This document shows, piece after piece, positions 16,362 to 49,963 of a stretch of DNA of 64,000 nucleotides. Where the stretch lies: positions 81,105-145,104 of the forward strand of contig JAFQQQ010000005.1 of NCBI GenBank assembly GCA_017410525.1, read 5' to 3'. Under the pieces are notes generated by a model, which was given only the letters and a program-made list of their open reading frames with translations, was not told the origin of the DNA and did not search any database. The translations under genes and the position numbers were made by a program. How positions within the stretch are numbered: the first letter of the stretch is position 1; each line of letters begins with the position of its first letter. This DNA comes from Bacilli bacterium. GTDB lineage: Bacteria > Bacillota_I > Bacilli_A > RF39 > UBA660.

Positions 16362-17049
16362 ATTTATAGAAGAAGTGGAAAGTCTTGGTATAGAAATAAC
16401 AGATAAAAAACTAGAGCAACTAGAAAAATATTATGCACTTCTAATTGAATATAACAAAGTTATGAATTTAACTGGAATTACGGAAAAAGAAGAAGTTTAT
16501 TTAAAACACTTTTATGATTCATTAGCAATATCTAAAATAATAGATTTAAATAATGAAAATAGTTTATGTGATTTAGGAAGCGGAGCAGGATTCCCAGGTA
16601 TTGTTATTAAAATATTTTATCCTCAATTAGAAATAGTTTTAGTAGATTCATTGAATAAGAGAATTAACTTTTTAAATACAGTAATAAAAAAATTAGATTT
16701 AGAAAAAATAACTGCTATGCATTCTAGAATAGAAGAATATGCTGTTGAAAACAAAGAACAATTTGATATTGTAACAGCAAGAGCGGTAGCTCCCCTAAAC
16801 ATTCTTTTAGAATTAGGTATTAATTTAGTAAAAGTTGGGAAATATTTTATAGCTATGAAAGGTAATATAGAAAATGAACCTGAGTATAGTAACGCAATAA
16901 AAAAATTAGATTGTTCTCTGGATAATATTGTAAAATTTAGATTACCAATAGAAGAAAGTAATAGAAGTTTAATAAAAATAAGAAAAGAAAAAACAACTTC
17001 AAAACTTTTTCCTAGAAAATATAGTGATATAAAAAAGAAACCTTTATAA
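16348..17049 (+). CDS. rsmG: 16S rRNA m7G527 methyltransferase RsmG (GidB)
   Basis: 233 aa with a SAM-binding motif (DLGSGAGFPG). Confidence 0.9.
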   Translation: MNKDRFIEEVESLGIEITDKKLEQLEKYYALLIEYNKVMNLTGITEKEEVYLKHFYDSLAISKIIDLNNENSLCDLGSGAGFPGIVIKIFYPQLEIVLVDSLNKRINFLNTVIKKLDLEKITAMHSRIEEYAVENKEQFDIVTARAVAPLNILLELGINLVKVGKYFIAMKGNIENEPEYSNAIKKLDCSLDNIVKFRLPIEESNRSLIKIRKEKTTSKLFPRKYSDIKKKPL

Positions 17050-17070: not shown

Positions 17071-17139
17071 ATTATTTCCCAAAAATATTTATAAATATTT
17101 CCCAAACTTATTGCAATATTTCCCAAAATGTTGTAGAAT
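17071..17139 (+). promoter_or_regulatory. Promoter region of the noc-like gene with three direct repeats of ATATTTCCCAAA
   Basis: ATTTCCCAAA repeated at about 17073, 17096 and 17117 (21-23 bp phasing). These overlap a putative -35 TTGCAA (17111-17116), a 17-nt spacer and an extended -10 TGTAGAAT (17131-17139). Confidence 0.45.
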
Positions 17140-17168
17140 GATAGTGAAGAATAAAAAGGAGGGATATC

Positions 17169-18920
17169 ATGTATGATAATTCATCTAGGGTAATAGAAGT
17201 AGATATCAACGAAATATTACCTAATAGATTTCAACCAAGAATACAATTTGATGAAGAAGAAATATTAGAATTATCTGATTCAATAAAAGAACATGGTGTT
17301 ATCCAACCTTTAGTAGTTAGGACTATTGGAGATAAATATGAAATAATTGCTGGAGAAAGAAGATATAAAGCAAGTGTTCTTGCTGGAAAAGAAACGGTAC
17401 CAGTGATTGTTAAAAATTTAAATGATAAAGATAGTGCAGAAATCGCACTTATAGAAAATATACAAAGAAAAAATTTAACACCTATAGAAGAAGCATTAAG
17501 TTATAAAAAAATTCTTGATATGGGATATATAACTCAAGAAAATCTAGCTTCTAAATTAGGTAAAAGTCAATCTGCAGTTGCTAATAAAATAAGATTATTA
17601 AATTTATCTGATGAAGTTCAAGAAGCATTACTTGAAAATAAAATTTCAGAAAGACATGCAAGATCGCTTTTAAAACTTACAACTTCTAAACAACAAAATG
17701 AAATGTTAAATAGAATTATTTCTGAAAGATTAACAGTTAGAAGAGCAGATGAAGAAATAGAGAAAATGAAAAATAACGTAGAGCAGGACAAAAAAGAAGA
17801 TAATCAAATAATCATAGAAAAAGGGGAAATAGATATGAATAATAATATGTTTGGAATGCCTAATGTTCCACAAACTTCACAACCATCAACAGGCTTTGAT
17901 ATATTTGGACCATCAAATCAACAACCAGTACAACCACAACCTGTAGTTAGTGCAATACCAGAGCCTGAGCAACAACTTGTTACTCCAAGTTTTGATATAT
18001 TTGGTGGCTCAGCAACTTTAGAAATGCCTTCGAGTGTACCGGAAGTTGAAGTTCCAACAATGAATATATCAGCAGTGCCAGAAATGCCAGTAATGAGTGA
18101 AATGGGATTTGGAATAAATAATACAGAATCAACAACACCAGAAATATCATCGAGTGTTCCAAAAATTGAAGTTCCAACAATGGATATACCAGCAGTACCA
18201 GAAATGCCAGCAATGAGTGAAATGGGATTTGGAATAAATAATACAGAATCAACAACACCAGAAATATCATCGAGTGTTCCAAAAATTGAAGTTCCAACAA
18301 TGGATATACCAGCAGTACCAGAAATGCCAGCAATGAGCGAAATGGGATTTGGAATAAATAATACAGGATCAACAACACCAGAAATATCATCGAGTGTTCC
18401 AAAAATTGAAGTTCCAACAATGGATATACCAGCAGTACCAGAAATGCCAGCAATGAGCGAAATGGGATTTGGAATAAATAATACAGGATCAACAACACCA
18501 GAAATACCTTCAAGCGTACCAGAAGTTGAAGTTCCAATAATGGAAGTACCAGTTACTTCACCTATTATAGAAACTCCAATAGCTAGTTCTCCAGTAGAGA
18601 TGCCACAACAAATAGAGAATTCATTTAGCTTTGGAAATAATAATATGAATCCTGTTGAAGTATCTACTCCAGCGGTAGAAACACCAGTAGTACCAGAATT
18701 TAAAATACCAGAACCAATTATTGTTACAGATTATTCTAAACAATATGACCCAGTTATGCCACAATATGGACCAGTAGCTCCAGCAGTTGATTTTAAAGAA
18801 GTAATAAATGCAATAAGAGAATGTTCAAATAAAATAGAACAATATGGATTTAAAATAGATGTAGAAGAAATAGATTTAGTAAATTTATATCAAGCAGTAT
18901 TTAAAATAGAGAAACAATAA
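17169..18920 (+). CDS. ParB/Noc-family protein with a long C-terminal 40-aa tandem-repeat region
   Basis: The N-terminal ~200 aa form a ParB-N domain (…IIAGERRYKAS…, HTH). Residues ~285-460 carry 4.4 copies of the repeat PEISSSVPKIEVPTMDIPAVPEMPAMSEMGFGINNTESTT. Sits in the noc position downstream of rsmG. Confidence 0.8.
   Translation: MYDNSSRVIEVDINEILPNRFQPRIQFDEEEILELSDSIKEHGVIQPLVVRTIGDKYEIIAGERRYKASVLAGKETVPVIVKNLNDKDSAEIALIENIQRKNLTPIEEALSYKKILDMGYITQENLASKLGKSQSAVANKIRLLNLSDEVQEALLENKISERHARSLLKLTTSKQQNEMLNRIISERLTVRRADEEIEKMKNNVEQDKKEDNQIIIEKGEIDMNNNMFGMPNVPQTSQPSTGFDIFGPSNQQPVQPQPVVSAIPEPEQQLVTPSFDIFGGSATLEMPSSVPEVEVPTMNISAVPEMPVMSEMGFGINNTESTTPEISSSVPKIEVPTMDIPAVPEMPAMSEMGFGINNTESTTPEISSSVPKIEVPTMDIPAVPEMPAMSEMGFGINNTGSTTPEISSSVPKIEVPTMDIPAVPEMPAMSEMGFGINNTGSTTPEIPSSVPEVEVPIMEVPVTSPIIETPIASSPVEMPQQIENSFSFGNNNMNPVEVSTPAVETPVVPEFKIPEPIIVTDYSKQYDPVMPQYGPVAPAVDFKEVINAIRECSNKIEQYGFKIDVEEIDLVNLYQAVFKIEKQ
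18025..18550 (+). repeat. 120-bp in-frame tandem repeat (~4.4 copies, ~98% identical) inside the ParB/Noc-like gene
   Basis: Period-120 recurrence of ...gaagttccaacaatggatataccagcagtaccagaaatgcc... at 18050, 18170, 18290, 18410 and 18530. Confidence 0.9.
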
Positions 18921-19870: not shown

Positions 19871-19996
19871 TATTCATGGTATCATAATTCACGACCGTAA
19901 TCAATTAAATTATACTTAATTTAATTAATTTCATACATAAAAAATTGTTATTTTGTTAGAAATATGTTATTATAAAGATAGTAGGGAGTGATAAAT

Positions 19997-21376
19997 ATGC
20001 AAAATAAAATTTTAAGTAGAATATTTTTAGATGTATATCAAAACTTGCCAATGTTTTATAGTAATAAACCTAAAATCAATATAGAAGATTATGATCTGTT
20101 AGAAGCAACTTTAGAAAATTATTTATTAGAAATATTGGGTTATAAAATAAAATATAATTACGAAGATAATTATAGGGAAATAATAAAACTTTTTGAAAAT
20201 GTTTTTTATAACAGTAGATATAAAAATTATAACAACATAATAGAAAGTATAAATACTTATAAAAAAGAATTAAAGGATAAATTAGAAAATCATAAATATA
20301 CTAGTTTATTTATAGATACATTAAGAAAAATGTATAGCAAATCTTATGATGGGAGAATACTTACTAATACTGAAAAAGATTTAAGTTTTTCTACAATAGC
20401 AATTAGTAACAAAGGAAATTCTTTTATGATAGGAAGAATACCTAGAAAAGAAGAACAAATTCTTCCTTCAATACAAATAAATGATATACAAGAATTTGAA
20501 GCTATATTAAAAAAATATATAGAATCGGTTGTATTATCAGATAGTTTTTATAACATATTTAATAATGTGTATTTTACAAACATTTCGTTTGAAGATAAAG
20601 TAAAAACTCTTATAGAGTGCACGTTATTTAATGCGACAGGAACTGACTTAAGTAATATAGAAAATTTTTTTAGAAAATATACAGATTTTATAAATGATAA
20701 AACATTTGATTTTATAAGAAGACCTAAACATATGGGTAATCTATTTAATGATGATTTATATGTAATGTGTAAAAGGTCAGAACTTGAGTATGAAACGCCT
20801 TACTATTTAGCTTTTATGTTAAATAATAAAAGAGTAGAATTACCAAATATAAGAATGGGGATAGAAAATAAAGAAGAAAAAAAAGTTGCACATATTATTG
20901 CTACTCAATCTGCTCAAACCGTATTAAACCAGGAAACATTTCAAGAAATTCAAAAAGAAATAAAAAATAATTTACCAACAGACGCATATTTTAGATTTTA
21001 TAATCCATCCCATTTAGTTTCTATTTTAATGACTTTCGGATTGCTTAAGGGTATTGGAATAGAGGAAGTAGAAGTAAAAGATTTTTTACCTTTTAGATAC
21101 AACAAAACTGTATTAGATAGACAAATGGATCCGGAAGAATCAGATAATTTCCAGAGAAGGTTAACTAATAAAAACTTAATAACATACATGAGACTTATAT
21201 CTGTAGTAGACGGAATAGATATTATAACTTATCCAGAAATGGATATGAGTTTAAAATTGAAGATAGAAGATAATGTTGTTTGTAAGAATGAATTTTTGCA
21301 AAAAATATATGATATGGGATATAAATTAGGCATAGAAAATAAAAATAATTTAGAACAAAATAAAACAATAAAGTAA
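19997..21376 (+). CDS. Hypothetical protein, no recognisable domain
   Basis: ~460-aa ORF with a GGGAG RBS 8 nt upstream of the ATG at 19997 (the ORF track begins at an upstream GTG at 19988). Asn/Lys-rich. Confidence 0.5.
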   Translation: MQNKILSRIFLDVYQNLPMFYSNKPKINIEDYDLLEATLENYLLEILGYKIKYNYEDNYREIIKLFENVFYNSRYKNYNNIIESINTYKKELKDKLENHKYTSLFIDTLRKMYSKSYDGRILTNTEKDLSFSTIAISNKGNSFMIGRIPRKEEQILPSIQINDIQEFEAILKKYIESVVLSDSFYNIFNNVYFTNISFEDKVKTLIECTLFNATGTDLSNIENFFRKYTDFINDKTFDFIRRPKHMGNLFNDDLYVMCKRSELEYETPYYLAFMLNNKRVELPNIRMGIENKEEKKVAHIIATQSAQTVLNQETFQEIQKEIKNNLPTDAYFRFYNPSHLVSILMTFGLLKGIGIEEVEVKDFLPFRYNKTVLDRQMDPEESDNFQRRLTNKNLITYMRLISVVDGIDIITYPEMDMSLKLKIEDNVVCKNEFLQKIYDMGYKLGIENKNNLEQNKTIK

Positions 21377-21443: not shown

Positions 21444-21722
21444 ATGTTTGAATTAGTATCAAAATATAGTCCTAGTGGAGATCAACCTCAAGCAATAGCA
21501 AAATTAGTTGAAGGCATTAAAAATGGAGAAAAGCATCAAACTTTAATGGGTGTTACTGGTTCAGGAAAAACTTTTACTATGGCAAATGTAATTGCCAAAG
21601 TTAACAAGCCAACTTTAATTCTTGCTCATAATAAAACTCTTGCAGGTCAATTATACGCAGAGTTTAAAGAATTATTTCCTAATAATAAAGTTTGTTTTTT
21701 TATATCTTATTATAATATCTAG
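21444..21722 (+). pseudogene. Truncated 5' copy of uvrB (92 codons, Walker A retained), diverged paralogous fragment
   Basis: [92 protein letters not shown]. This is ~90% aa and ~80% nt identical to codons 1-92 of the intact uvrB at 23064. It has its own AGGAGG RBS. Confidence 0.8.
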
Positions 21723-21982: not shown

Positions 21983-22858
21983 ATGTATGAAATTTATTTT
22001 AAAAAAGTAGAAGAGGTATTGGATGCTTTTCCTGTTGATTGTAGAACTAATTATTATGAAAATAAAAAAAGTGTAAAAATAGAAATACAAGATGAACTTT
22101 TTAAAAACTTATATGCAACTTATGACCATGAAAAAAATGAAATAGAACTTTATAGAGAAACTGGGTTACCACATGAATTATTTCATATGGCATTTAGAGA
22201 TAAAAAAAAGGTAGAAAAGAAAATATTTGAAGATTCTGATATTATATATGGAAATGGAATTAGTTATAGTCGTGTACAAGATGGTAAAAAAAATACAGCT
22301 GGAAAAGCGATAACAGAGGGATTTGCAGAATATTTATCGAGAAAATGCAGTGAGGAAAAGGGTCATTTACTTGAATTCTTTTTTACAGATTTGCTTATTT
22401 CCATTTATGGTGAAGAAATAATTTGTTATGCACTAAAAAATAATTCTTTTGAATTTTTTACTGATGAAAGATTTAATGATATAATGTTATTTTCAAGAAC
22501 ACTAGATTCTCTATACGATCTTTCTGGTGCTATACAAACAATATCTAGATTCTCTGACATTTTTAAACAAGTATTCAACTCAAATGATGAAGAGGAAAAA
22601 CGTAAATTATCTCGTTCTATTTTTGAAATAAAACAAGGATTTAAAAATTGTGTAGTTAAATTGTTTGAAGTTATAGTTAACGAATATAATAGTTGCAATA
22701 AACCTAAAATATCAAAAGATGACTTTATTTTAAAATTAGAAGAATTTAGTAAAAACACTGATTATCAACATTTTTATAAGCTAGATGATTCAATAGTAAA
22801 CATGACAAAAGAGATAAATAAAATAATAAAAAGATTTAGTAAAGGTAGGAGTAAATAA
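21983..22858 (+). CDS. Hypothetical protein with an HExxH (zincin-like) motif
   Basis: 291 aa. PHELFHMAF is followed ~47 residues later by EGFAEY, consistent with a putative zinc metallopeptidase motif. Flanked by TTGTGACCTAA-containing direct repeats. Confidence 0.5.
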   Translation: MYEIYFKKVEEVLDAFPVDCRTNYYENKKSVKIEIQDELFKNLYATYDHEKNEIELYRETGLPHELFHMAFRDKKKVEKKIFEDSDIIYGNGISYSRVQDGKKNTAGKAITEGFAEYLSRKCSEEKGHLLEFFFTDLLISIYGEEIICYALKNNSFEFFTDERFNDIMLFSRTLDSLYDLSGAIQTISRFSDIFKQVFNSNDEEEKRKLSRSIFEIKQGFKNCVVKLFEVIVNEYNSCNKPKISKDDFILKLEEFSKNTDYQHFYKLDDSIVNMTKEINKIIKRFSKGRSK

Positions 22859-23063: not shown

Positions 23064-25007
23064 ATGTTTCATTTAGTGTCAAAATATAAACCTTCTGGAG
23101 ACCAGCCACAAGCAATAAAAAAACTAGTTGAAGGTATTAAGAATGGTGAAAAACACCAGGTTTTAAAAGGGGTTACGGGTTCTGGAAAAACTTTTACAAT
23201 GGCAAATATAATTGCTGAAGTTAATAAACCAACACTTATTCTAGCTCACAATAAAACACTTGCAGGACAACTATATGCAGAGTTTAAAGAATTATTTCCA
23301 AATAATAAAGTATGTTTTTTTATTAGCTACTATGATTATTATCAACCCGAAGCTTATGTCGCAAAAACAGATACATATATAGAAAAAGATGCTGCGATAA
23401 ACGACGAAATAGATGAATTAAGACATGCTGCTACTGCGTCACTTTTAAATTTTAATGATGTAATAGTAGTTGCTTCTGTATCTTGCATATACGGTATAGG
23501 TGAAATGGAAGAATATCAAAAAAAGATGTTAACACTCTTCCAAGGACAAACTATTGATAGAGAAAAAATAATAGAAAAATTAATAGATATGCTTTATGAA
23601 AGAAATGATATAGATTTTAAAAGGGGTACCTTTAGAGCTAAAGGAGATATTATAGATATTGTTCCAATAAATGAACATACTAAAGGTATTAGAATAGAAC
23701 TGTTTGGAGATGAGATAGAATCAATAAAAGAGTTTGATCCTATAACAGGAAGCATAACTTCAAATAAAAAATCAATATCTTTATTTCCTGCTAGTCATTT
23801 TGTAACTAGTCCTGAAAAATTGAATAAAGCTTTAGAAAATATAAGAAAAGAACTAGAAGAAAGGTTAGCTTGTTTTCAAAAAAATAATAAACTTTTAGAA
23901 TATCAAAGGCTTAGTGAAAGAACTAATTATGATTTGGAGATGCTTGAAGAAACAGGTTTCTGTAGGGGAGTAGAAAATTATTCTAGACCACTTGCCTTAA
24001 AAGAACCTGGAGCAACCCCAACAACTCTTATAGATTTCTTTAAAGATGATTTTTTGCTTTTCATAGATGAATCACATGTTACTCTACCACAAGTAAGGGG
24101 TATGTATAATGGGGATAGAGCAAGAAAAGAAGTTCTTGTAGATTATGGATTTAGACTTCCTAGTGCGCTTGACAATAGACCTTTAAAATTTAATGAGTTT
24201 GAAGACAAAATAAATCAAGTTATTTATGTATCTGCTACTCCTGGAGACTATGAGTTAGAACATTCCCCAAAACCAGTAGAACAATTAATTAGACCTACAG
24301 GCTTACTTGATCCTACTATAGAAGTTCATCCGACTAAAAACCAAATAGATGACTTAATTGGTGAAATAAATGAAAGAGTAGAAAATAAAGAAAAGGTACT
24401 TATAACAACATTAACAATTAGAATGGCAGAAGAATTAACACAATACTTAAAAGGATTAGATATAAAGGTTGCTTATCTGCACTCAGAGATTAAATCATTA
24501 GAAAGACTTAAAATAATAAGAGATTTAAGAAAAGGCAAATATGATGTAATAGTTGGAATAAACTTACTTAGAGAAGGTTTAGACATTCCAGAAGTATCTT
24601 TAGTGGCTATTATGGATGCTGACAAACAAGGTTTCTTAAGAAGTGAGAGAAGTTTAATACAAACAATAGGTAGAGCTGCTAGAAATGCTAATGGTAAAGT
24701 TATAATGTATGCAGATTACATTAGTGAATCTATGGATATTGCTATAAAAGAAACAGAAAGAAGAAGACAAATACAAGAAGAATATAATAAACAAAATAAT
24801 ATTGTTCCAAAAACAATAATAAAAGAAATAGCTGATATAGTATCTAATGAAGTAGAAGAAGAAATAAAGTTAGAAAAGATGTCTAAACAAGATAAAGTAA
24901 AACTTATGATAAAATTAGAAAATGAAATGAAAGAAGCAGCCAAGAACTTAGATTTTGAAAGAGCTATGGAACTTAGAGATATTCTATTTGAATTAAAAAG
25001 CGAATAG
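23064..25007 (+). CDS. uvrB: Excinuclease ABC subunit B
   Basis: 647 aa with an N-terminal Walker A (GVTGSGKT), helicase motifs, the beta-hairpin region and a C-terminal UVR domain (…[11 protein letters not shown]…). Confidence 0.95.
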
Positions 25008-39182: not shown

Positions 39183-40985
39183 ATGAAACAAAGGGGATTT
39201 ACATTAATAGAGTTATTATCTGTAATAGTGATTCTTGCAATCATCGCACTAATAGCAACGCCCATAATATTAGATATAATAAATGAATCAAAAGAGAAAG
39301 CATATGGTAATAGTGTAGAAAGTATAATGCATGCAGCTAAAATATATAATACAAAGAGTCAATTTAAAAATCCTTTAGTAATGGATCAAAACGTATATAG
39401 CGAAGTAATGGAAATGGTAGATGGAGAAAAACCTGAATCAGGTAATTTGTATATAAATGCAGATGGTGAAATTGCGTTTGCGTTTCAATATGGAGAATTG
39501 TGTTATAGTAAAAGCTATGAGGATGATACATATACAAAGGAAAAAACTAATGTGTGCAATGTACCTTTTTATTATTTGAAATCAGTATCTGCACAAACAA
39601 ATGGAGATGACAACCCTTTTTTAGAAAATACATATGGTATATCAAAGGCAAAAATAGAAGAGATAATAACAGTAAATAGCAATAAAGTGTCTGATGATGC
39701 AATATATAGTTGGGAAGTAACAGATCAGGAGAATGTCAAAGAAGAGTATAAAGTAATGGCTTGGTGTCTAGATGTAGATAAAGATGGATTATATGAAGTA
39801 TATATAGGTCAAAATGGCGGGGTAAAAGCAAACCCAAATTCCTCAAAATTATTTGCTTATTTAACAAATGTAACAAAAATAGATTTAAAAAATTTTGATA
39901 CATCAAATGTGACAACGATGATGGGAATGTTTAATTATTGTAAAAATTTACAAATACTAGATTTAAGTAATTTTAATACTAGCAAAGTAACAACAATGGC
40001 AGGAATGTTCCAACAATGTAATTCTTTAATAGAGTTGAATTTAAGTAGCTTTGATACATCAAATGTGACAGACATTTCTTATATGTTTAACAAATGCTAT
40101 GCATTGACAAAGTTAAATTTAAGTAAATTTAACACTAGCAAAGTAACAACGATGGTTGCAATGTTCCAATACTGTGAATCTTTAACAAAATTAAATTTAA
40201 GTAATTTTGATACATCAAATGTAACAACAATGGCAGGAATGTTTAATTGTTGTAAAAATTTACAAACATTAAATTTAAGTAATTTTGATACATCAAATGT
40301 AACAACAATGTCAATGATGTTTCAACAATGTAATTCTTTAATAGAACTAGATTTAAGTAGCTTTAATACATCAAAAGTGGAAAATATGGAATTAATGTTT
40401 AATAATTGCTATGCATTGACAAAGCTAGATTTAAGTAAATTTAATACTAGCAAAGTAACAACAATGGCAGGAATGTTCCAACAATGTAAATCCTTAAAAG
40501 AGCTAAATCTAAGTATCTTTAATACATCAAAAGTGGAAAATATGGCAGGAATGTTTAGTGGTTGTGAAATATTGACAAAGCTAGATTTAAGTAATTTTAA
40601 TACAAGTAATGTAATAAAAATGAGTGGAATGTTTCAAAATTGTTATAATTTGAAAGAATTAAATCTAAATAAGTGGAATACATCGAAAGTAACAACGATG
40701 TCACATATGTTTAACAATTGTAAAGCTTTAACAGAATTAGATTTAAGCACTTTTGATACGTCAAAAGTAGAATATATTTCTTATATGTTTAATAATTGTC
40801 AATCCTTGAAACAAATAAACTTAAAACAAGCAACATTTGAAAGTATCAAGGAAAACGAATATAACAAAGTTTTTAATGGGGCAACTACTTTAAATAAAAT
40901 AATTGTAGAAGATGATGAAGCAATAACCTGGTTGCAAGCAAGGATAAATGATAATGGATTAACAGCATTAGTATCAAAAACATAA
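39183..40985 (+). CDS. Protein with a type IV prepilin-like N-terminal signal fused to ~17 DUF285/BspA-type leucine-rich repeats
   Basis: N-terminal MKQRGFTLIELLSVIVILAIIALIATPI is the class III prepilin cleavage/methylation motif (G-F-T-L-I-E). Then come reiterated ~26-aa units LxLSxFDTSxVTxMxxMFxxCxxL. Confidence 0.8.
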   Translation: MKQRGFTLIELLSVIVILAIIALIATPIILDIINESKEKAYGNSVESIMHAAKIYNTKSQFKNPLVMDQNVYSEVMEMVDGEKPESGNLYINADGEIAFAFQYGELCYSKSYEDDTYTKEKTNVCNVPFYYLKSVSAQTNGDDNPFLENTYGISKAKIEEIITVNSNKVSDDAIYSWEVTDQENVKEEYKVMAWCLDVDKDGLYEVYIGQNGGVKANPNSSKLFAYLTNVTKIDLKNFDTSNVTTMMGMFNYCKNLQILDLSNFNTSKVTTMAGMFQQCNSLIELNLSSFDTSNVTDISYMFNKCYALTKLNLSKFNTSKVTTMVAMFQYCESLTKLNLSNFDTSNVTTMAGMFNCCKNLQTLNLSNFDTSNVTTMSMMFQQCNSLIELDLSSFNTSKVENMELMFNNCYALTKLDLSKFNTSKVTTMAGMFQQCKSLKELNLSIFNTSKVENMAGMFSGCEILTKLDLSNFNTSNVIKMSGMFQNCYNLKELNLNKWNTSKVTTMSHMFNNCKALTELDLSTFDTSKVEYISYMFNNCQSLKQINLKQATFESIKENEYNKVFNGATTLNKIIVEDDEAITWLQARINDNGLTALVSKT

Positions 40986-41157: not shown

Positions 41158-41943
41158 ATGGGAAAGGTAATAGCATTCGTAAATCAAAAGGGTGGAGTTG
41201 GAAAAACAACTTCAAGTATCAATTTAGCGGCTTCCCTAGGACTTTTAGGAAAAAAGACTTTATTAGTAGACTTAGACCCGCAAGGTAATAGTACTACTGG
41301 TGTAGGAGTTAATAAAGGCGATTTGGAAAGTAGTATATATGAACTTTTAGTAGATAGAGCAGAAGTAAAGAAAGTAGTTGCTAAAACAAAGTTTAAAAAC
41401 TTATATTTAATACCAGCCTCAATAAACTTGGCAGGTGTTGATATGGAACTTATGGAAATAGCAAGACAAAATCCAGAGTTTATTCCACAATTACAATTAA
41501 AAAAATATTTAGGGGAAATAAAAGAAGTATTTGATTATATAATTCTAGATTGTCCACCATCACTTGGACTAATAACAACAAATGCTCTTGCAGCTTCTAA
41601 TTCAGTAATAATCCCGGTACAATGTGAGTTTTTCGCACTTGAAGGAATTATGCAACTCTTGAATTCAATTATGATTGCTCAAAAGAAATTAAATCCAAGC
41701 CTAGATATAGAAGGCGTATTATTAACAATGCTTGATAATCGTACTAATTTAGGACTTGAAGTAGTAGAAGAAATTAAAAGTTACTTTAAAGAAAAAGTAT
41801 ATGATACTATAATACCAAGACTTGTTAGACTATCAGAAGCACCAAGTCATGGTAAACCAATTCATGCATATGATCCAAGAAGTAGAGGAACAGAAGCATA
41901 TATTAATTTAGCTAAAGAGGTGATTGAGAGAAATGGAAACTAA
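41158..41943 (+). CDS. soj: Chromosome partitioning ATPase ParA/Soj
   Basis: Deviant Walker A KGGVGKTT; 261 aa. Confidence 0.9.
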   Translation: MGKVIAFVNQKGGVGKTTSSINLAASLGLLGKKTLLVDLDPQGNSTTGVGVNKGDLESSIYELLVDRAEVKKVVAKTKFKNLYLIPASINLAGVDMELMEIARQNPEFIPQLQLKKYLGEIKEVFDYIILDCPPSLGLITTNALAASNSVIIPVQCEFFALEGIMQLLNSIMIAQKKLNPSLDIEGVLLTMLDNRTNLGLEVVEEIKSYFKEKVYDTIIPRLVRLSEAPSHGKPIHAYDPRSRGTEAYINLAKEVIERNGN

Positions 41944-42808
41944 GAAAAGAGCTTTAGGTAGAGGTTTAGAACAATTATTTAACAATGAAAACTTAGACTT
42001 AAATAGTTTTGAGCAAAAAGTTTATGAAACAGCAACTAATGAAGAAATAATAGATATAAACTTGAGTGATTTAAGAGCAAATCCGTATCAACCTCGTAAG
42101 GTATTTAATGATGAAGCATTAAATGACTTAGCTGAATCAATAAAAGAACATGGCGTTTTTCAACCAATCATTGTTAAAAAAAGTATAAAAGGTTATGAAA
42201 TAATTGCAGGAGAAAGAAGAGTTAGAGCGTCTAAACTTGCTGGGCTTGAAAAAATTCCAGCAATCATTCGTAATTTAAATGATGAACAAATGATGGAAAT
42301 AGCACTTTTAGAAAACTTACAAAGAGAAAACTTAAGTGCGATAGAAGAAGCAGTTGCTTATAAATCTATGATAGAAAAATTAAATCTAACGCAAGAGGAA
42401 TTAAGTAAAAAAGTAGGTAAAAGTAGAAGTCATATAACTAATATTTTAGGATTACTTAGACTTCCAAAAGAAGTTCAAGAAATGGTTGCGCATAATAAAC
42501 TTAGCATGGGACATGCCAGAGTATTAAGTAAGTTAGAAGATAATGAAAAAATACTTGAAATGGCAAGACAAATAGTTGAAAGAAAAATACCGGTAAGAGA
42601 ACTTGAACAACAAGCAGAAGATAAGGCTAAAAAAGTAAAAATAGAAAGACACGCTAAATCAGTTAATAACGATTTTAAATATGTTGAAGAATTATTAAGA
42701 GAAAAATTAGATACAAAAGTAAAAATAAAAGATAAAAAAATAGAAATAGCGTTTACAAATGTTGCAGATTTAAATAGAATACTAGAAGTATTAAATGTAA
42801 GAGAATAG
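41924..42808 (+). CDS. spo0J: Chromosome partitioning protein ParB/Spo0J
   Basis: 294 aa with GERRVRAS and HTH motifs; overlaps soj. Confidence 0.9.
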   Translation: MREMETKKRALGRGLEQLFNNENLDLNSFEQKVYETATNEEIIDINLSDLRANPYQPRKVFNDEALNDLAESIKEHGVFQPIIVKKSIKGYEIIAGERRVRASKLAGLEKIPAIIRNLNDEQMMEIALLENLQRENLSAIEEAVAYKSMIEKLNLTQEELSKKVGKSRSHITNILGLLRLPKEVQEMVAHNKLSMGHARVLSKLEDNEKILEMARQIVERKIPVRELEQQAEDKAKKVKIERHAKSVNNDFKYVEELLREKLDTKVKIKDKKIEIAFTNVADLNRILEVLNVRE

Positions 42809-49774: not shown

Positions 49775-49963
49775 ACTTTTTTTAATTTTTATAAAAAAAA
49801 GCTTGATTTTTTTAGGAAAATATCATATAATTTTGTATGTGTGACTGCGGAGATGTGTGAGGTTGCTGATACACCAGGTTAAGTTGTTATATAATTTAAA
49901 CTGAAAATCAGGTTTTTACACGGAGCAAGTCTATACTGGATATAGACGAAGGGAGGATACAAG

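Follow-up and report, generated by a model that had tools for sequence, protein, structure and literature searches.

A probable Noc orthologue of uncultured gut Bacilli with a long, repeat-bearing disordered linker and no N-terminal membrane helix

The 583-aa ParB-family protein encoded at bp 17169-18920 (ATG start) of the window, the whole 64-kb stretch of DNA that was analysed, is probably an orthologue of Noc, in a variant form that occurs throughout a clade of uncultured low-GC gut Bacilli. Taken as a whole, this is the best explanation of the data. (Features below lie on the + strand unless another is given.) The ribosome-binding site AGGAGG (17157-17162) lies 6 nt 5' of the ATG. The same arrangement of ribosome-binding site and start is kept in related loci, and this conserved site fixes the short N-terminus of the protein. 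The gene order in the window is dnaA, mnmE, mnmG, rsmG and then the 583-aa ParB gene, with rsmG (gidB) directly upstream, the place near oriC that is typical of noc; each of the 21 loci whose 5' flank is intact has the order mnmE-mnmG-rsmG-noc, as does B. subtilis (L024). On the opposite strand, an ORF of 185 aa (17980-18537, - strand) was rejected as a gene. Its translation is periodic, a by-product of the repeat described below, and neither a family match nor conservation supports it.

The first-pass annotation had called the gene a second ParB paralogue in the Noc position, with the reservation that its N-terminal domain might fail ParB profiles. Profile searches bore the call out. The ParB N-terminal (CTP-binding) domain (aa 8-99; 17190-17465) matched Pfam PF02195 (E 1e-32), the HTH DNA-binding domain (aa 101-202; 17469-17774) matched PF17762 (HTH_ParB, E 5e-32), and TIGR00180 (cut-off 58.45 bits) gave 182.7 bits. 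Residues 6-210 were modelled by AF2 with pLDDT values of 80-95, and Foldseek found ParB and Noc structures with E values of 1e-17 to 1e-20. The protein is a member of the ParB/Spo0J superfamily with ParB_N and HTH domains. Weak Pfam matches to DUF1685, GmrSD_N, RepB, KorB and others fell under the cut-offs and were discarded as noise or superfamily echoes.

Within the superfamily, Noc is the nearest relative. The best PDB matches in both sequence and fold were Noc structures (7NG0, 7NFU and 7OL9), and Foldseek superimposed the model on the Noc DBD-NBS complex 6Y93 with a TM score of 0.89-0.93 and an rmsd of 1.3-1.8 A. The best-scoring family was NCBIfam nucleoid_noc (TIGR04285), with 286.8 bits over model positions 2-217; the Spo0J of the window scored 239 bits with this model. 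Removal of the linker in silico raised the score to 293.7 bits and extended the match end-to-end (positions 2-255 of 255), the protein staying under the curated cut-off of 315 bits with or without linker. Genes of this family, below the Noc model cut-off, are currently annotated by the generic name 'ParB/RepB/Spo0J family partition protein'.

The predicted CTP and clamp motifs read from the sequence are Q46, G62-E-R-R65-Y-K67 (GERRYKA) and E96-N-I-Q-R100, and the motifs (Q, GERR, ENxQR) are invariant in 72 family members. The Q46 and GERR residues map to Q68, G86, R88 and R89 of B. subtilis Noc, and the E96-N97 region presumably to E120-N121. The sole clamp-motif change in the 583-aa protein is R91 to K (B. 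subtilis Noc numbering), at a position where the alanine mutant of B. subtilis Noc retained function (PMC4331003). The DNA-specificity residues are Q134, K140, N145 and R162; three of the four match Q173, K179, K184 and R201 (Caulobacter ParB numbering), with N in place of K184. Q173 and R201 together with a K at 179 or 184 are enough for binding of the Noc-binding site (NBS) (PMC7383237), and the 583-aa protein has Q, R and one permissive K, from which NBS specificity is predicted. The combination was QKNR in 127 and QKKR in 7 members of the long-linker family, against QKKR in 118 of 118 canonical Noc proteins.

The C-terminus, earlier described as a conserved tail, is better read as a Noc-type C-terminal (dimerisation) domain (CTD; aa 541-583; 18789-18917), recognised by hhalign, TIGR04285 and AF2, the AF2 models giving a helix (542-559) plus a beta-hairpin (561-582). 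Profile alignment by hhalign of the family CTD with the canonical Noc CTD covered 44 of 44 columns (probability 93%, E 3.5e-7), and the CTD alone had TIGR04285 (positions 211-255, E 0.048) as its sole NCBIfam match. The profile alignment establishes homology with the Noc CTD, and dimerisation is predicted. Searches of the PDB with the CTD profile (best E 0.33) and by Foldseek with a CTD-only model (best E 0.47) gave nothing meaningful, which is why the homology rests on profile-profile comparison; the fold is unmatched in the PDB because every solved Noc structure is C-terminally truncated.

The N-terminus departs from that of Noc. In 120 canonical Noc proteins, all of which start MKH[PS]FSR[FL]FG.GEKE, the motif NRFQPR lies near residue 48, whereas the 583-aa protein begins MYDNSSRVIEV and has NRFQPR at residue 19. 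About 29 N-terminal residues are missing and with them the membrane-targeting amphipathic helix, as the first-pass annotation had noticed; the helix is missing from the entire long-linker family. In B. subtilis, NocNdelta10 does not function (PMC4331003), so nucleoid occlusion by the known mechanism should not be assumed for the 583-aa protein. A motif conserved among the linkers, N(S/L)FSFG (aa 484-489; 18618-18635), also seen as LFSFG, looks like the core of the membrane helix of canonical Noc (MKHPFSRLFSFGEKE in G. thermoleovorans), a resemblance that is statistically weak. With a PSSM of the canonical helix, the linker of the window scored no better than shuffled linkers (p = 0.24), and 24% of the family members had p < 0.05. 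These figures lend weak support to the idea that linker motifs may stand in for the lost helix; the strong acidity of the linker is unfavourable for binding to anionic membranes.

In contrast to what the first-pass annotation had supposed, the length of the protein was not created by the repeat array. The closest relative (P0002/L003) contains a single homologous unit and is already 477 aa long. The best 120 homologues were all 359-652 aa, orthologues of 476-643 aa were present in 23 GTDB species genomes, and the CTD profile retrieved about 500 representative protein clusters, whose longest full-length members reach 885 aa. Family members thus range from 359 to 885 aa (median about 540 aa) and their linkers from 113 to 634 aa; among 172 proteins, no full-length member with a linker under 113 aa was found. 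Orthologues of about 280 aa, which had been considered possible, were not among them. Among the carriers found, the architecture was confined to uncultured gut Bacilli, represented by MAGs labelled Bacilli or Tenericutes. The long linker is old and clade-wide, and the earlier description of the protein as atypical is right by comparison with characterised Noc but not within the clade, where this form is the norm. No description of a long-linker or anchor-less Noc was found in the literature covered, which was incomplete.

The earlier suggestion of a disordered spacer between the DNA-binding domain and the conserved C-terminus agrees with the AF2 models, in which aa 212-519 (17802-18725) have pLDDT values below 50 and no secondary structure. 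The linker is rich in Pro, Ser, Thr, Glu and Val; aa 205-509 consist of 15% Pro, 14% Asp+Glu and 2% Lys+Arg, compared to 2.9% Pro and 12.1% Lys+Arg in neighbouring proteins, and the net charge of aa 222-509 is about -33. The G + C content is 36% for the linker DNA, 27% for the parts of the gene on either side of it and 27.5% for the genome; the composition is held against the mutational (AT) bias. Two copies of the motif FDIFG (aa 243-247, 17895-17909; aa 275-279, 17991-18005) are 80-90% conserved in the family, and in family linkers the pairs Phe-Gly and Phe-Asp exceed the frequency expected from composition about 5-fold. Directly before the CTD lies the near-invariant motif EFKIPEPIIVTDYSKQYDPVMPQ (aa 510-532; 18696-18764), for which AF2 predicts no secondary structure and in which I517, I518, T520, D521, K524, Y526, D527, P528 and P531 are invariant in 72 sequences. 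Its invariant part can be written in short form as EPIIVTDYSKQYDPVMP. A search of every other ORF in the window for FDIFG and TDYSKQYDP, as a hint of a shared partner, found neither. What the linkers of the family have in common is that they are disordered and acidic, do not fall below a minimum length and carry a few short motifs centred on Phe as well as the invariant pre-CTD motif.

These features suggest how a variant Noc might work. The protein would load as a CTP-gated clamp at NBS-like DNA, and the linker would be a long flexible tether whose short motifs are offered to the membrane or a partner and which so makes up for the lost N-terminal anchor. Alternatively, occlusion could be independent of the membrane: DNA-bound clamps would coat the nucleoid with a long, acidic, disordered brush or condensate bearing Phe motifs, and FtsZ or the divisome would be kept out by steric hindrance or by phase behaviour, no membrane anchor being needed, and changes in repeat number would tune the thickness of the brush. 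The absence of the helix across the family, the minimum linker length and conserved composition, and the excess of Phe-Gly and Phe-Asp, a sticker-and-spacer pattern, speak for such a brush, and canonical Noc is reported to phase-separate (PMC9606368). However, the net charge of the linker opposes self-association unless counter-ions or partners are present, and the conserved islands resemble partner-binding motifs more than generic stickers. We regard occlusion by a brush as possible, though not likely.

The region upstream of the Noc-like gene contains a candidate DNA target. Three direct exact copies of TATTTCCCAAA (17073-17127; starts at 17073, 17096 and 17117) are candidate operator or loading sites; they include TATTTCCC, the 8-nt half-site of the 16-bp NBS TATTTCCCGGGAAATA. 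A consensus scan predicted a sigma-70-like promoter, TTGCAA-17 nt-TAGAAT (17111-17139), in a block conserved in related loci. The third half-site falls within the promoter spacer and the second directly upstream of the -35 hexamer. In the 150 nt 5' of 22 orthologous genes, TATTTCCC occurred 51 times on the + strand, at the fixed offsets -52, -73 and -85 to -96, an enrichment of 186-fold over the background of the same 22 loci; none was found in the B. subtilis noc promoter. The 8-mer was seen ten times in the 64-kb window where 2.4 were expected (about 4-fold over-representation), and no comparable cluster was found at any other promoter of the window. The sole near-palindromic NBS-like site in the 64 kb, TATTTCCCAGGAAATT, lies at 447-462, and 14 relatives have TATTTCCCAG[G/A]AAATA at the 3' end of rsmG. 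The three promoter half-sites would be among the loading sites of the protein, with autoregulation as the consequence.

The same sites can be read differently. Having lost the membrane anchor, the protein could be a neofunctionalised, KorB-like CTP-dependent repressor of transcription or clamp that acts mainly at TATTTCCC operators, including those of its own promoter, and not in division control. The overlap of three exact half-sites with the -35/-10 region, their enrichment and fixed positions, and the excess of the 8-mer in the window are all in keeping with this, as is KorB itself, a repressor and clamp of the ParB family that contains disordered regions (PMC11790492, PMC5577506). Yet autoregulation is common in ParB-family proteins and compatible with a Noc role, and other promoters of the window have no such cluster. 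For autoregulation as for this reading, a difficulty is that ParB-family dimers normally need palindromic sites, whereas the promoter TATTTCCC copies are direct half-sites; the sites could also belong to another regulator. A mainly transcriptional role is, in our judgement, unlikely.

In the Noc-like protein, the repeats would tune the length of the linker rather than add a specific function. Tandem Repeats Finder placed the 120-bp in-frame array at 18030-18552, close to the 18025-18550 reported earlier, with 4.4 copies of the 40-aa unit SSVPKIEVPTMDIPAVPEMPAMSEMGFGINNTESTTPEIS (period 120, 95% matches, 0 indels, score 892), the fifth copy being partial (about 33 nt). Within the linker the array occupies the hypervariable core, and the frame is kept into the conserved C-terminal domain that follows. 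Copies 2 and 3 and copies 3 and 4 are 98.3% identical, copies 2 and 4 96.7%, and copy 1 is 90-93% identical to copies 2-4; the identity of about 98% given in the first-pass annotation is accurate for adjacent interior copies (97-98%) and too high for copy 1 and for the array as a whole (95%). The near-identity of the interior copies of the 40-aa unit fits the recent in-frame expansion that had been proposed, and comparison with the closest relative shows a young amplification from about 1.4 to 4.4 units. As the long-linker architecture is shared clade-wide, the array accounts for only about 120 aa (about 3 units) of the extra length. Multiplication of a functional GFG motif by the repeat was rejected as a conserved feature; the unit of the closest relative reads NIG.

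Variation in copy number had been predicted as well. In sister lineages there are alleles that outside the repeats are 98-100% identical and whose lengths differ by whole numbers of the unit that they repeat, namely by 37 and 74 aa; 40; 50; 27; 2x32; and 7x24, although collapse of metagenome alleles in short-read assemblies could mimic such differences at least partly. This supports VNTR-like behaviour of the linker repeats in the family. For the source species the prediction did not find its counterpart: no second allele of the array was found among the homologues, and an exact 28-mer of the repeat unit had no matches in JGI metagenome contigs. Arrays of unrelated units occupy the same place of the linker in many relatives; across the family, the linker core evolves as tandem units unrelated to one another arise, expand and contract. 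Alleles with 2, 3 or 4 units, otherwise identical, form a natural length series.

A reading in which misassembly created the array, or its copy number, and in which the linker is neutral junk that two domains tolerate between them is very improbable. Over 117 nt, copy 3 does not differ from copy 4, a stretch within which short reads cannot count copies, so the exact copy number is unverifiable from the assembly alone; the missing 28-mer and the differences in repeat sequence between species could be taken in the same sense. Nevertheless, the presence of at least three distinct copy variants shows that the array as such was not created by the assembly, and the kept frame, the unrelated arrays at the same place, the minimum of 113 aa in 172 proteins, a composition opposed to the AT bias of the genome and the conservation of several linker motifs to more than 80-90% all argue against neutral junk.

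The partition loci lie where they had been placed before: six parS sites, five of them perfect, at 419-939 (0.1 expected by chance), about 17 kb away, and the canonical pair soj (41158-41943) and spo0J (41924-42808), together 41158-42808, about 22 kb on. The dense parS array and the distance of soj-spo0J, which is adjacent in B. subtilis, lend mild support to the unusual partition layout that had been claimed. That the 583-aa protein, as a ParB family member, is a second centromere-binding ParB acting on these parS sites and not a Noc is hardly credible, given its Noc-type Q134 and R162 where all ParB carry R and G, the coexisting Spo0J with R...G and its Soj partner, the lack of an N-terminal ParA-interacting peptide and the best matches to Noc.

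The reading as a Noc orthologue bears on the current model, in which Noc occlusion rests on CTP-regulated DNA-membrane tethering and the helix is regarded as essential and universal. Here a large natural family has kept the CTP-switch motifs, the NBS-type residues and the CTD, has lost the helix and has gained a long linker that looks selectively maintained. The family is a natural experiment on the model: targeting may have moved into the linker, or Noc may be used differently. The allele series of 2, 3 and 4 units offers a handle on how linker length affects a ParB-type clamp, and the conserved half-site array of the promoter is a concrete candidate DNA target. Tentatively, the clade may have rebuilt Noc as an anchor-free CTP clamp with the linker (100-600 aa) as effector, either a nucleoid-coating brush or condensate or a multivalent tether to a division or membrane partner, with coding repeats that tune its length at the level of strains and with loading and autoregulation at half-site direct repeats instead of palindromes. 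If true, Noc-based nucleoid occlusion would exist in a second form with a mechanism of its own; the full proposal is doubtful at present.

Compared to known systems, the 583-aa protein shares most with Noc of B. subtilis, G. thermoleovorans and Staphylococcus aureus (TIGR04285): ParB_N with GERR and ENxQR, an HTH with Q, K and R, a homologous CTD of helix plus hairpin, a gene adjacent to rsmG and coexisting Soj-Spo0J. It differs from them by the lost helix (about 29 residues), by N where they have K184, by a TIGR04285 score under the curated family cut-off and by its linker: in place of the basic connector of Noc, which is about 15 aa long (KPKPRRKAFSRD), family members have 113-634 aa of acidic disordered sequence with tandem repeats. 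Its promoter has NBS half-site direct repeats, unlike that of B. subtilis noc, and soj-spo0J, next to noc in B. subtilis, is not adjacent in the window. ParB/Spo0J has the same two N-terminal domains, the CTP-clamp architecture and a flexible linker before a dimerising CTD, but carries R173 and G201, binds parS and possesses an N-terminal ParA-activating peptide, another CTD (Pfam ParB_C) and a linker of about 20 aa. KorB of plasmid RK2, a CTP clamp and repressor, is a distant homologue (E 4e-14) that is likewise substantially disordered and binds promoter operators; it differs in its palindromic OB operators, KorA partner, SH3-like CTD and lack of a tandem-repeat linker, and, should the promoter half-sites be in use, the likeness would amount to an analogy of function. 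The C-terminal linker of FtsZ, a protein unrelated to the 583-aa protein, offers an analogy only: it is disordered, variable in length and sequence, and joins a conserved core to a conserved terminal module, its length and disorder outweighing its sequence.

The noc-like gene (17169-18920, + strand) encodes a protein of 583 aa that is a Noc homologue by descent; its ATG lies 6 nt after AGGAGG. Its top NCBIfam family was nucleoid_noc (286.8 bits, model positions 2-217 of 255), under the curated cut-off of 315 bits but over the 239 bits of the Spo0J of the window. When the linker was removed in silico, the Noc model was matched full-length (positions 2-255). The closest solved structures, by sequence and fold, were Noc of G. 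thermoleovorans and B. subtilis, and the predicted DNA-binding domain could be superposed on the Noc DBD-NBS complex 6Y93 (TM 0.89-0.93). In the structure model, the C-terminal 43 residues fold into a helix and a beta-hairpin, and the family C-terminal profile aligned end to end with the canonical Noc CTD profile (hhalign, probability 93%, E 3.5e-7). The order mnmE-mnmG-rsmG-noc is that of B. subtilis, and the only other ParB-family gene in the window is the canonical spo0J, which adjoins soj (41158-42808).

A canonical Noc set (n = 120, 265-298 aa) without exception started with MKH[PS]FSR[FL]FG.GEKE and had NRFQPR at about residue 48, whereas the noc-like protein starts with MYDNSSR and has NRFQPR at residue 19. 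Two claims of the first-pass annotation were borne out: the N-terminal amphipathic membrane helix is missing, and profile searches found the expected ParB domains (N-terminal, aa 8-99; HTH, aa 101-202). This helix was described as extremely conserved, predicted in every Noc homologue examined and required, NocNdelta10 being non-functional (Adams et al. 2015, PMC4331003). Because the helix is absent and the curated cut-off is missed, we do not file the protein as a functional Noc equivalog.

The linker that joins the DNA-binding domain to the CTD has AF2 pLDDT values below 50 and no secondary structure (aa 212-519). It consists of 15% Pro, 11% Glu, 11% Ser and 2% Lys+Arg (aa 205-509), compared to 2.9% Pro and 12% Lys+Arg in the surrounding proteins, and its net charge is about -33 (aa 222-509). 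The G + C content of the linker DNA (36%) is higher than that of the window and of the remaining parts of the gene (27%). Since composition and G + C content are unlike those of the surroundings, this composition is held against the mutational bias of the genome. Sequence and structure prediction together thus describe a long, disordered, repeat-prone linker with short conserved motifs that is maintained by selection.

Among 5.8 billion proteins searched, the best 120 homologues were all 359-652 aa and shared its N- and C-terminal domains, so the orthologs are not all about 280 aa. A CTD profile search of 1.84 billion representatives gave about 500 clusters at E <= 1e-3, with full-length members of up to 885 aa; the shorter entries inspected were 5'-truncated fragments. 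Orthologues of 476-643 aa with conserved synteny were present in 23 GTDB species genomes, all MAGs, with sample names pointing to the gut (rabbit, sheep, deer, mouse, human). All are labelled uncultured Bacilli or Tenericutes except one Bacteroidaceae bin. This bin (L017, CAVEJT010000001.1, 'Bacteroidaceae bacterium') has a family member of the usual type in complete mnmE-mnmG-rsmG synteny, and is probably mislabelled or contaminated. In 172 full-length members the linker measures 113-634 aa (median 294), with a mean composition of 2.8% K+R, 13.5% D+E, 14% P and 33% N/Q/S/T. NRFQPR is found at residue 16-27 in family members, and the canonical N-terminal extension is thus absent from all of them. 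The protein had been regarded as an atypical paralogue with a disordered repeat spacer; it is indeed unlike canonical Noc, but within its clade it is a typical family member. Existing annotation of these proteins is generic ParB/RepB/Spo0J only. In the literature searched we found no description of an anchor-less, long-linker Noc.

Tandem Repeats Finder detected one strong coding array (18030-18552; period 120, 4.4 copies, 95% matches, no indels) with an in-frame unit of 40 aa. Identity is 98.3% between adjacent interior copies, 96.7% between copies 2 and 4, and 90-93% between copy 1 and the rest; the fifth copy is partial. Over 117 nt, copies 3 and 4 do not differ at all, and only reads could therefore verify the exact number of copies, but the presence of three distinct copy variants means that the array itself is real. 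The first-pass annotation thus described the repeat accurately, but not its contribution: expansion accounts for only about 3 units (120 aa) of the 583 aa, as the closest genome relative (P0002, locus L003), with one homologous unit, is already 477 aa. The N-terminal region of this relative is essentially identical, with only a single change among the first 190 residues. Around half of the relatives carry arrays of their own at the matching linker position, with unrelated units (periods 15-77 aa, up to 9.9 copies). Several groups of alleles recovered from different samples share 98-100% identity except for one gap whose length is an exact multiple of the unit. A 37-aa unit is present four times in P0008, three times in P0011 and twice in P0012, and the gap is 40 aa in P0001 versus P0004, 50 aa in P0007 versus P0009, 27 aa in P0025 versus P0024, 2 x 32 aa in P0041 versus P0045 and 7 x 24 aa in P0082 versus P0072. 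Such a pattern is expected if slippage or unequal recombination changes the copy number, but collapse in short-read assembly could mimic it. The suggested VNTR may have a counterpart in sister lineages; no second allele of the window's own species was found among the best 120 homologues or by repeat 28-mer in JGI metagenome contigs.

Conservation mapping revealed islands in the otherwise free linker sequence: GEIDMNNNMFG (aa 218-229), two copies of FDIFG (aa 243-247 and 275-279), P.T.PIIE.P (aa 461-470), N(L/S)FSFG (aa 484-489) and the near-invariant EPIIVTDYSKQYDPVMP immediately before the CTD. Gly or Asp comes after Phe in the linkers of the family about five times as often as expected from composition. 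The FSFG island is similar to the central part of the membrane helix of G. thermoleovorans Noc, MKHPFSRLFSFGEKE, and more distant members have SFGRFFD and GKFF motifs. However, a canonical-helix PSSM scan of the window linker was weak (p = 0.24), the Phe motifs lack flanking basic residues, and the GFG of the repeat unit is not kept in the closest relative; that the membrane anchor has moved into the linker is thus a lead and not an established finding. We propose that the noc-like protein would load at NBS-like DNA and then spread, the linker being a flexible tether whose motifs could be offered to the membrane or to a partner, with a length possibly tuned by the repeats. A less likely rival reading is a membrane-independent brush or condensate, in which the disordered linker would need no anchor.

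Noc and ParB are separated by four residues, Q173, K179, K184 and R201 in Noc, with R and G at positions 173 and 201 in ParB; for NBS binding it is enough to have Q, R and a lysine at 179 or 184, as reported by Jalal et al. 2020 (PMC7383237). The noc-like protein has Q134, K140, N145 and R162, and the Spo0J of the window R...G. Q134/K140/R162 agree with the rule of Q, R and one lysine, and NBS-type specificity is thus predicted. Overall, recognition residues and CTD are Noc-type, and the ParB core is CTP-clamp-type with intact motifs, as judged from sequence and structure prediction.

Upstream of the gene, 17073-17127 (55 bp) contains three exact direct copies of TATTTCCCAAA. The 8-nt half-site TATTTCCC matches one half of the 16-bp NBS TATTTCCCGGGAAATA exactly and contains both bases discriminating NBS from parS (compared with PMC7383237). 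Half-site copies bracket and enter the predicted promoter TTGCAA-17-TAGAAT. Across 22 orthologous loci, the 150 nt ahead of the start codon contain 51 occurrences of the 8-mer. All lie on the coding strand at fixed offsets (-52, -73, -85 to -96), and their density is 186-fold that of the background; the B. subtilis noc promoter has none. The window has 10 copies (2.4 expected from base composition), most followed by A. Isolated half-sites lie at 52, 16837, 17824, 20175, 27969 and 41513, all on the - strand; one of them falls within the noc-like gene and another within soj. A further NBS-like site, some 130 bp ahead of the noc-like start, occurs in 14 relatives among the loci L001-L019 and L023 (for example L009 4362 and L011 4475). 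There the rsmG 3' end (codons LFPRKY) reads as the near-palindromic TATTTCCCAG[G/A]AAATA, which differs from the NBS by 1-2 mismatches. The proline codon CCC is used in it, which would be expected to be rare at 27% GC. The window copy (~17008-17023) is degenerate, having decayed to TTTTTCCTAGAAAATA. We infer that the promoter half-sites are putative binding or loading sites for the noc-like protein, in which case it would regulate itself; alternatively, they may serve a different regulator. A KorB-like regulator, to which promoter sites would be suited, is a further, less likely reading. Neutral junk or artefact, for which the repeats might be taken, is poorly supported against the composition and conserved islands of the linker, as is a second parS-binding ParB, since the R and G of ParB are present in Spo0J and not in the noc-like protein.

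Downstream of gyrA, an intergenic region (419-939) holds six parS sites within 520 bp, five perfect TGTTTCACGTGAAACA and one with a single mismatch (0.1 expected by chance), an unusually dense centromere array. Between its first two sites lies the near-palindromic TATTTCCCAGGAAATT (447-462; 2 mismatches to the 16-bp NBS), a putative Noc-type site embedded in the array. A small SRP RNA gene (665-760, - strand; Rfam RF00169, 56.4 bits) is located between the third and fourth sites. Downstream of the noc-like gene, a 462-aa ORF (19988-21376, + strand) has no Pfam or NCBIfam match; a 49%-identical homologue directly follows the noc-like gene in locus L010. A 273-nt direct repeat (21444-21716 and 23064-23336, 82% identity) reflects a uvrB 5' fragment (92 aa) duplicated 1.6 kb upstream of full uvrB (23064-25007). 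The duplicated segments flank a 291-aa ORF (21983-22858) without Pfam match, and the duplication may be the scar of an insertion. A 600-aa protein (39183-40985, + strand) has a prepilin-type N-terminal cleavage/methylation signal and 12 PARCEL repeats of Listeria/Mycoplasma lipoprotein type; its DNA (39857-40769) shows nested tandem periodicities of 78, 156 and 312 bp. An S10-Clostridia ribosomal-protein leader (RF03136, 42.5 bits; 49842-49949, + strand) precedes the ribosomal protein operon.

In B. subtilis, soj-spo0J follows noc with a single small gene in between (locus L024, 4591-6193), whereas in the window it lies 22 kb downstream of the noc-like gene, indicating that the ancestral noc-soj-spo0J cluster was split. 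Canonical Noc has an N-terminal membrane helix and a basic connector of ~15 aa between DNA-binding domain and CTD; the noc-like protein is without the N-terminal anchor and has ~300 residues in place of the connector.
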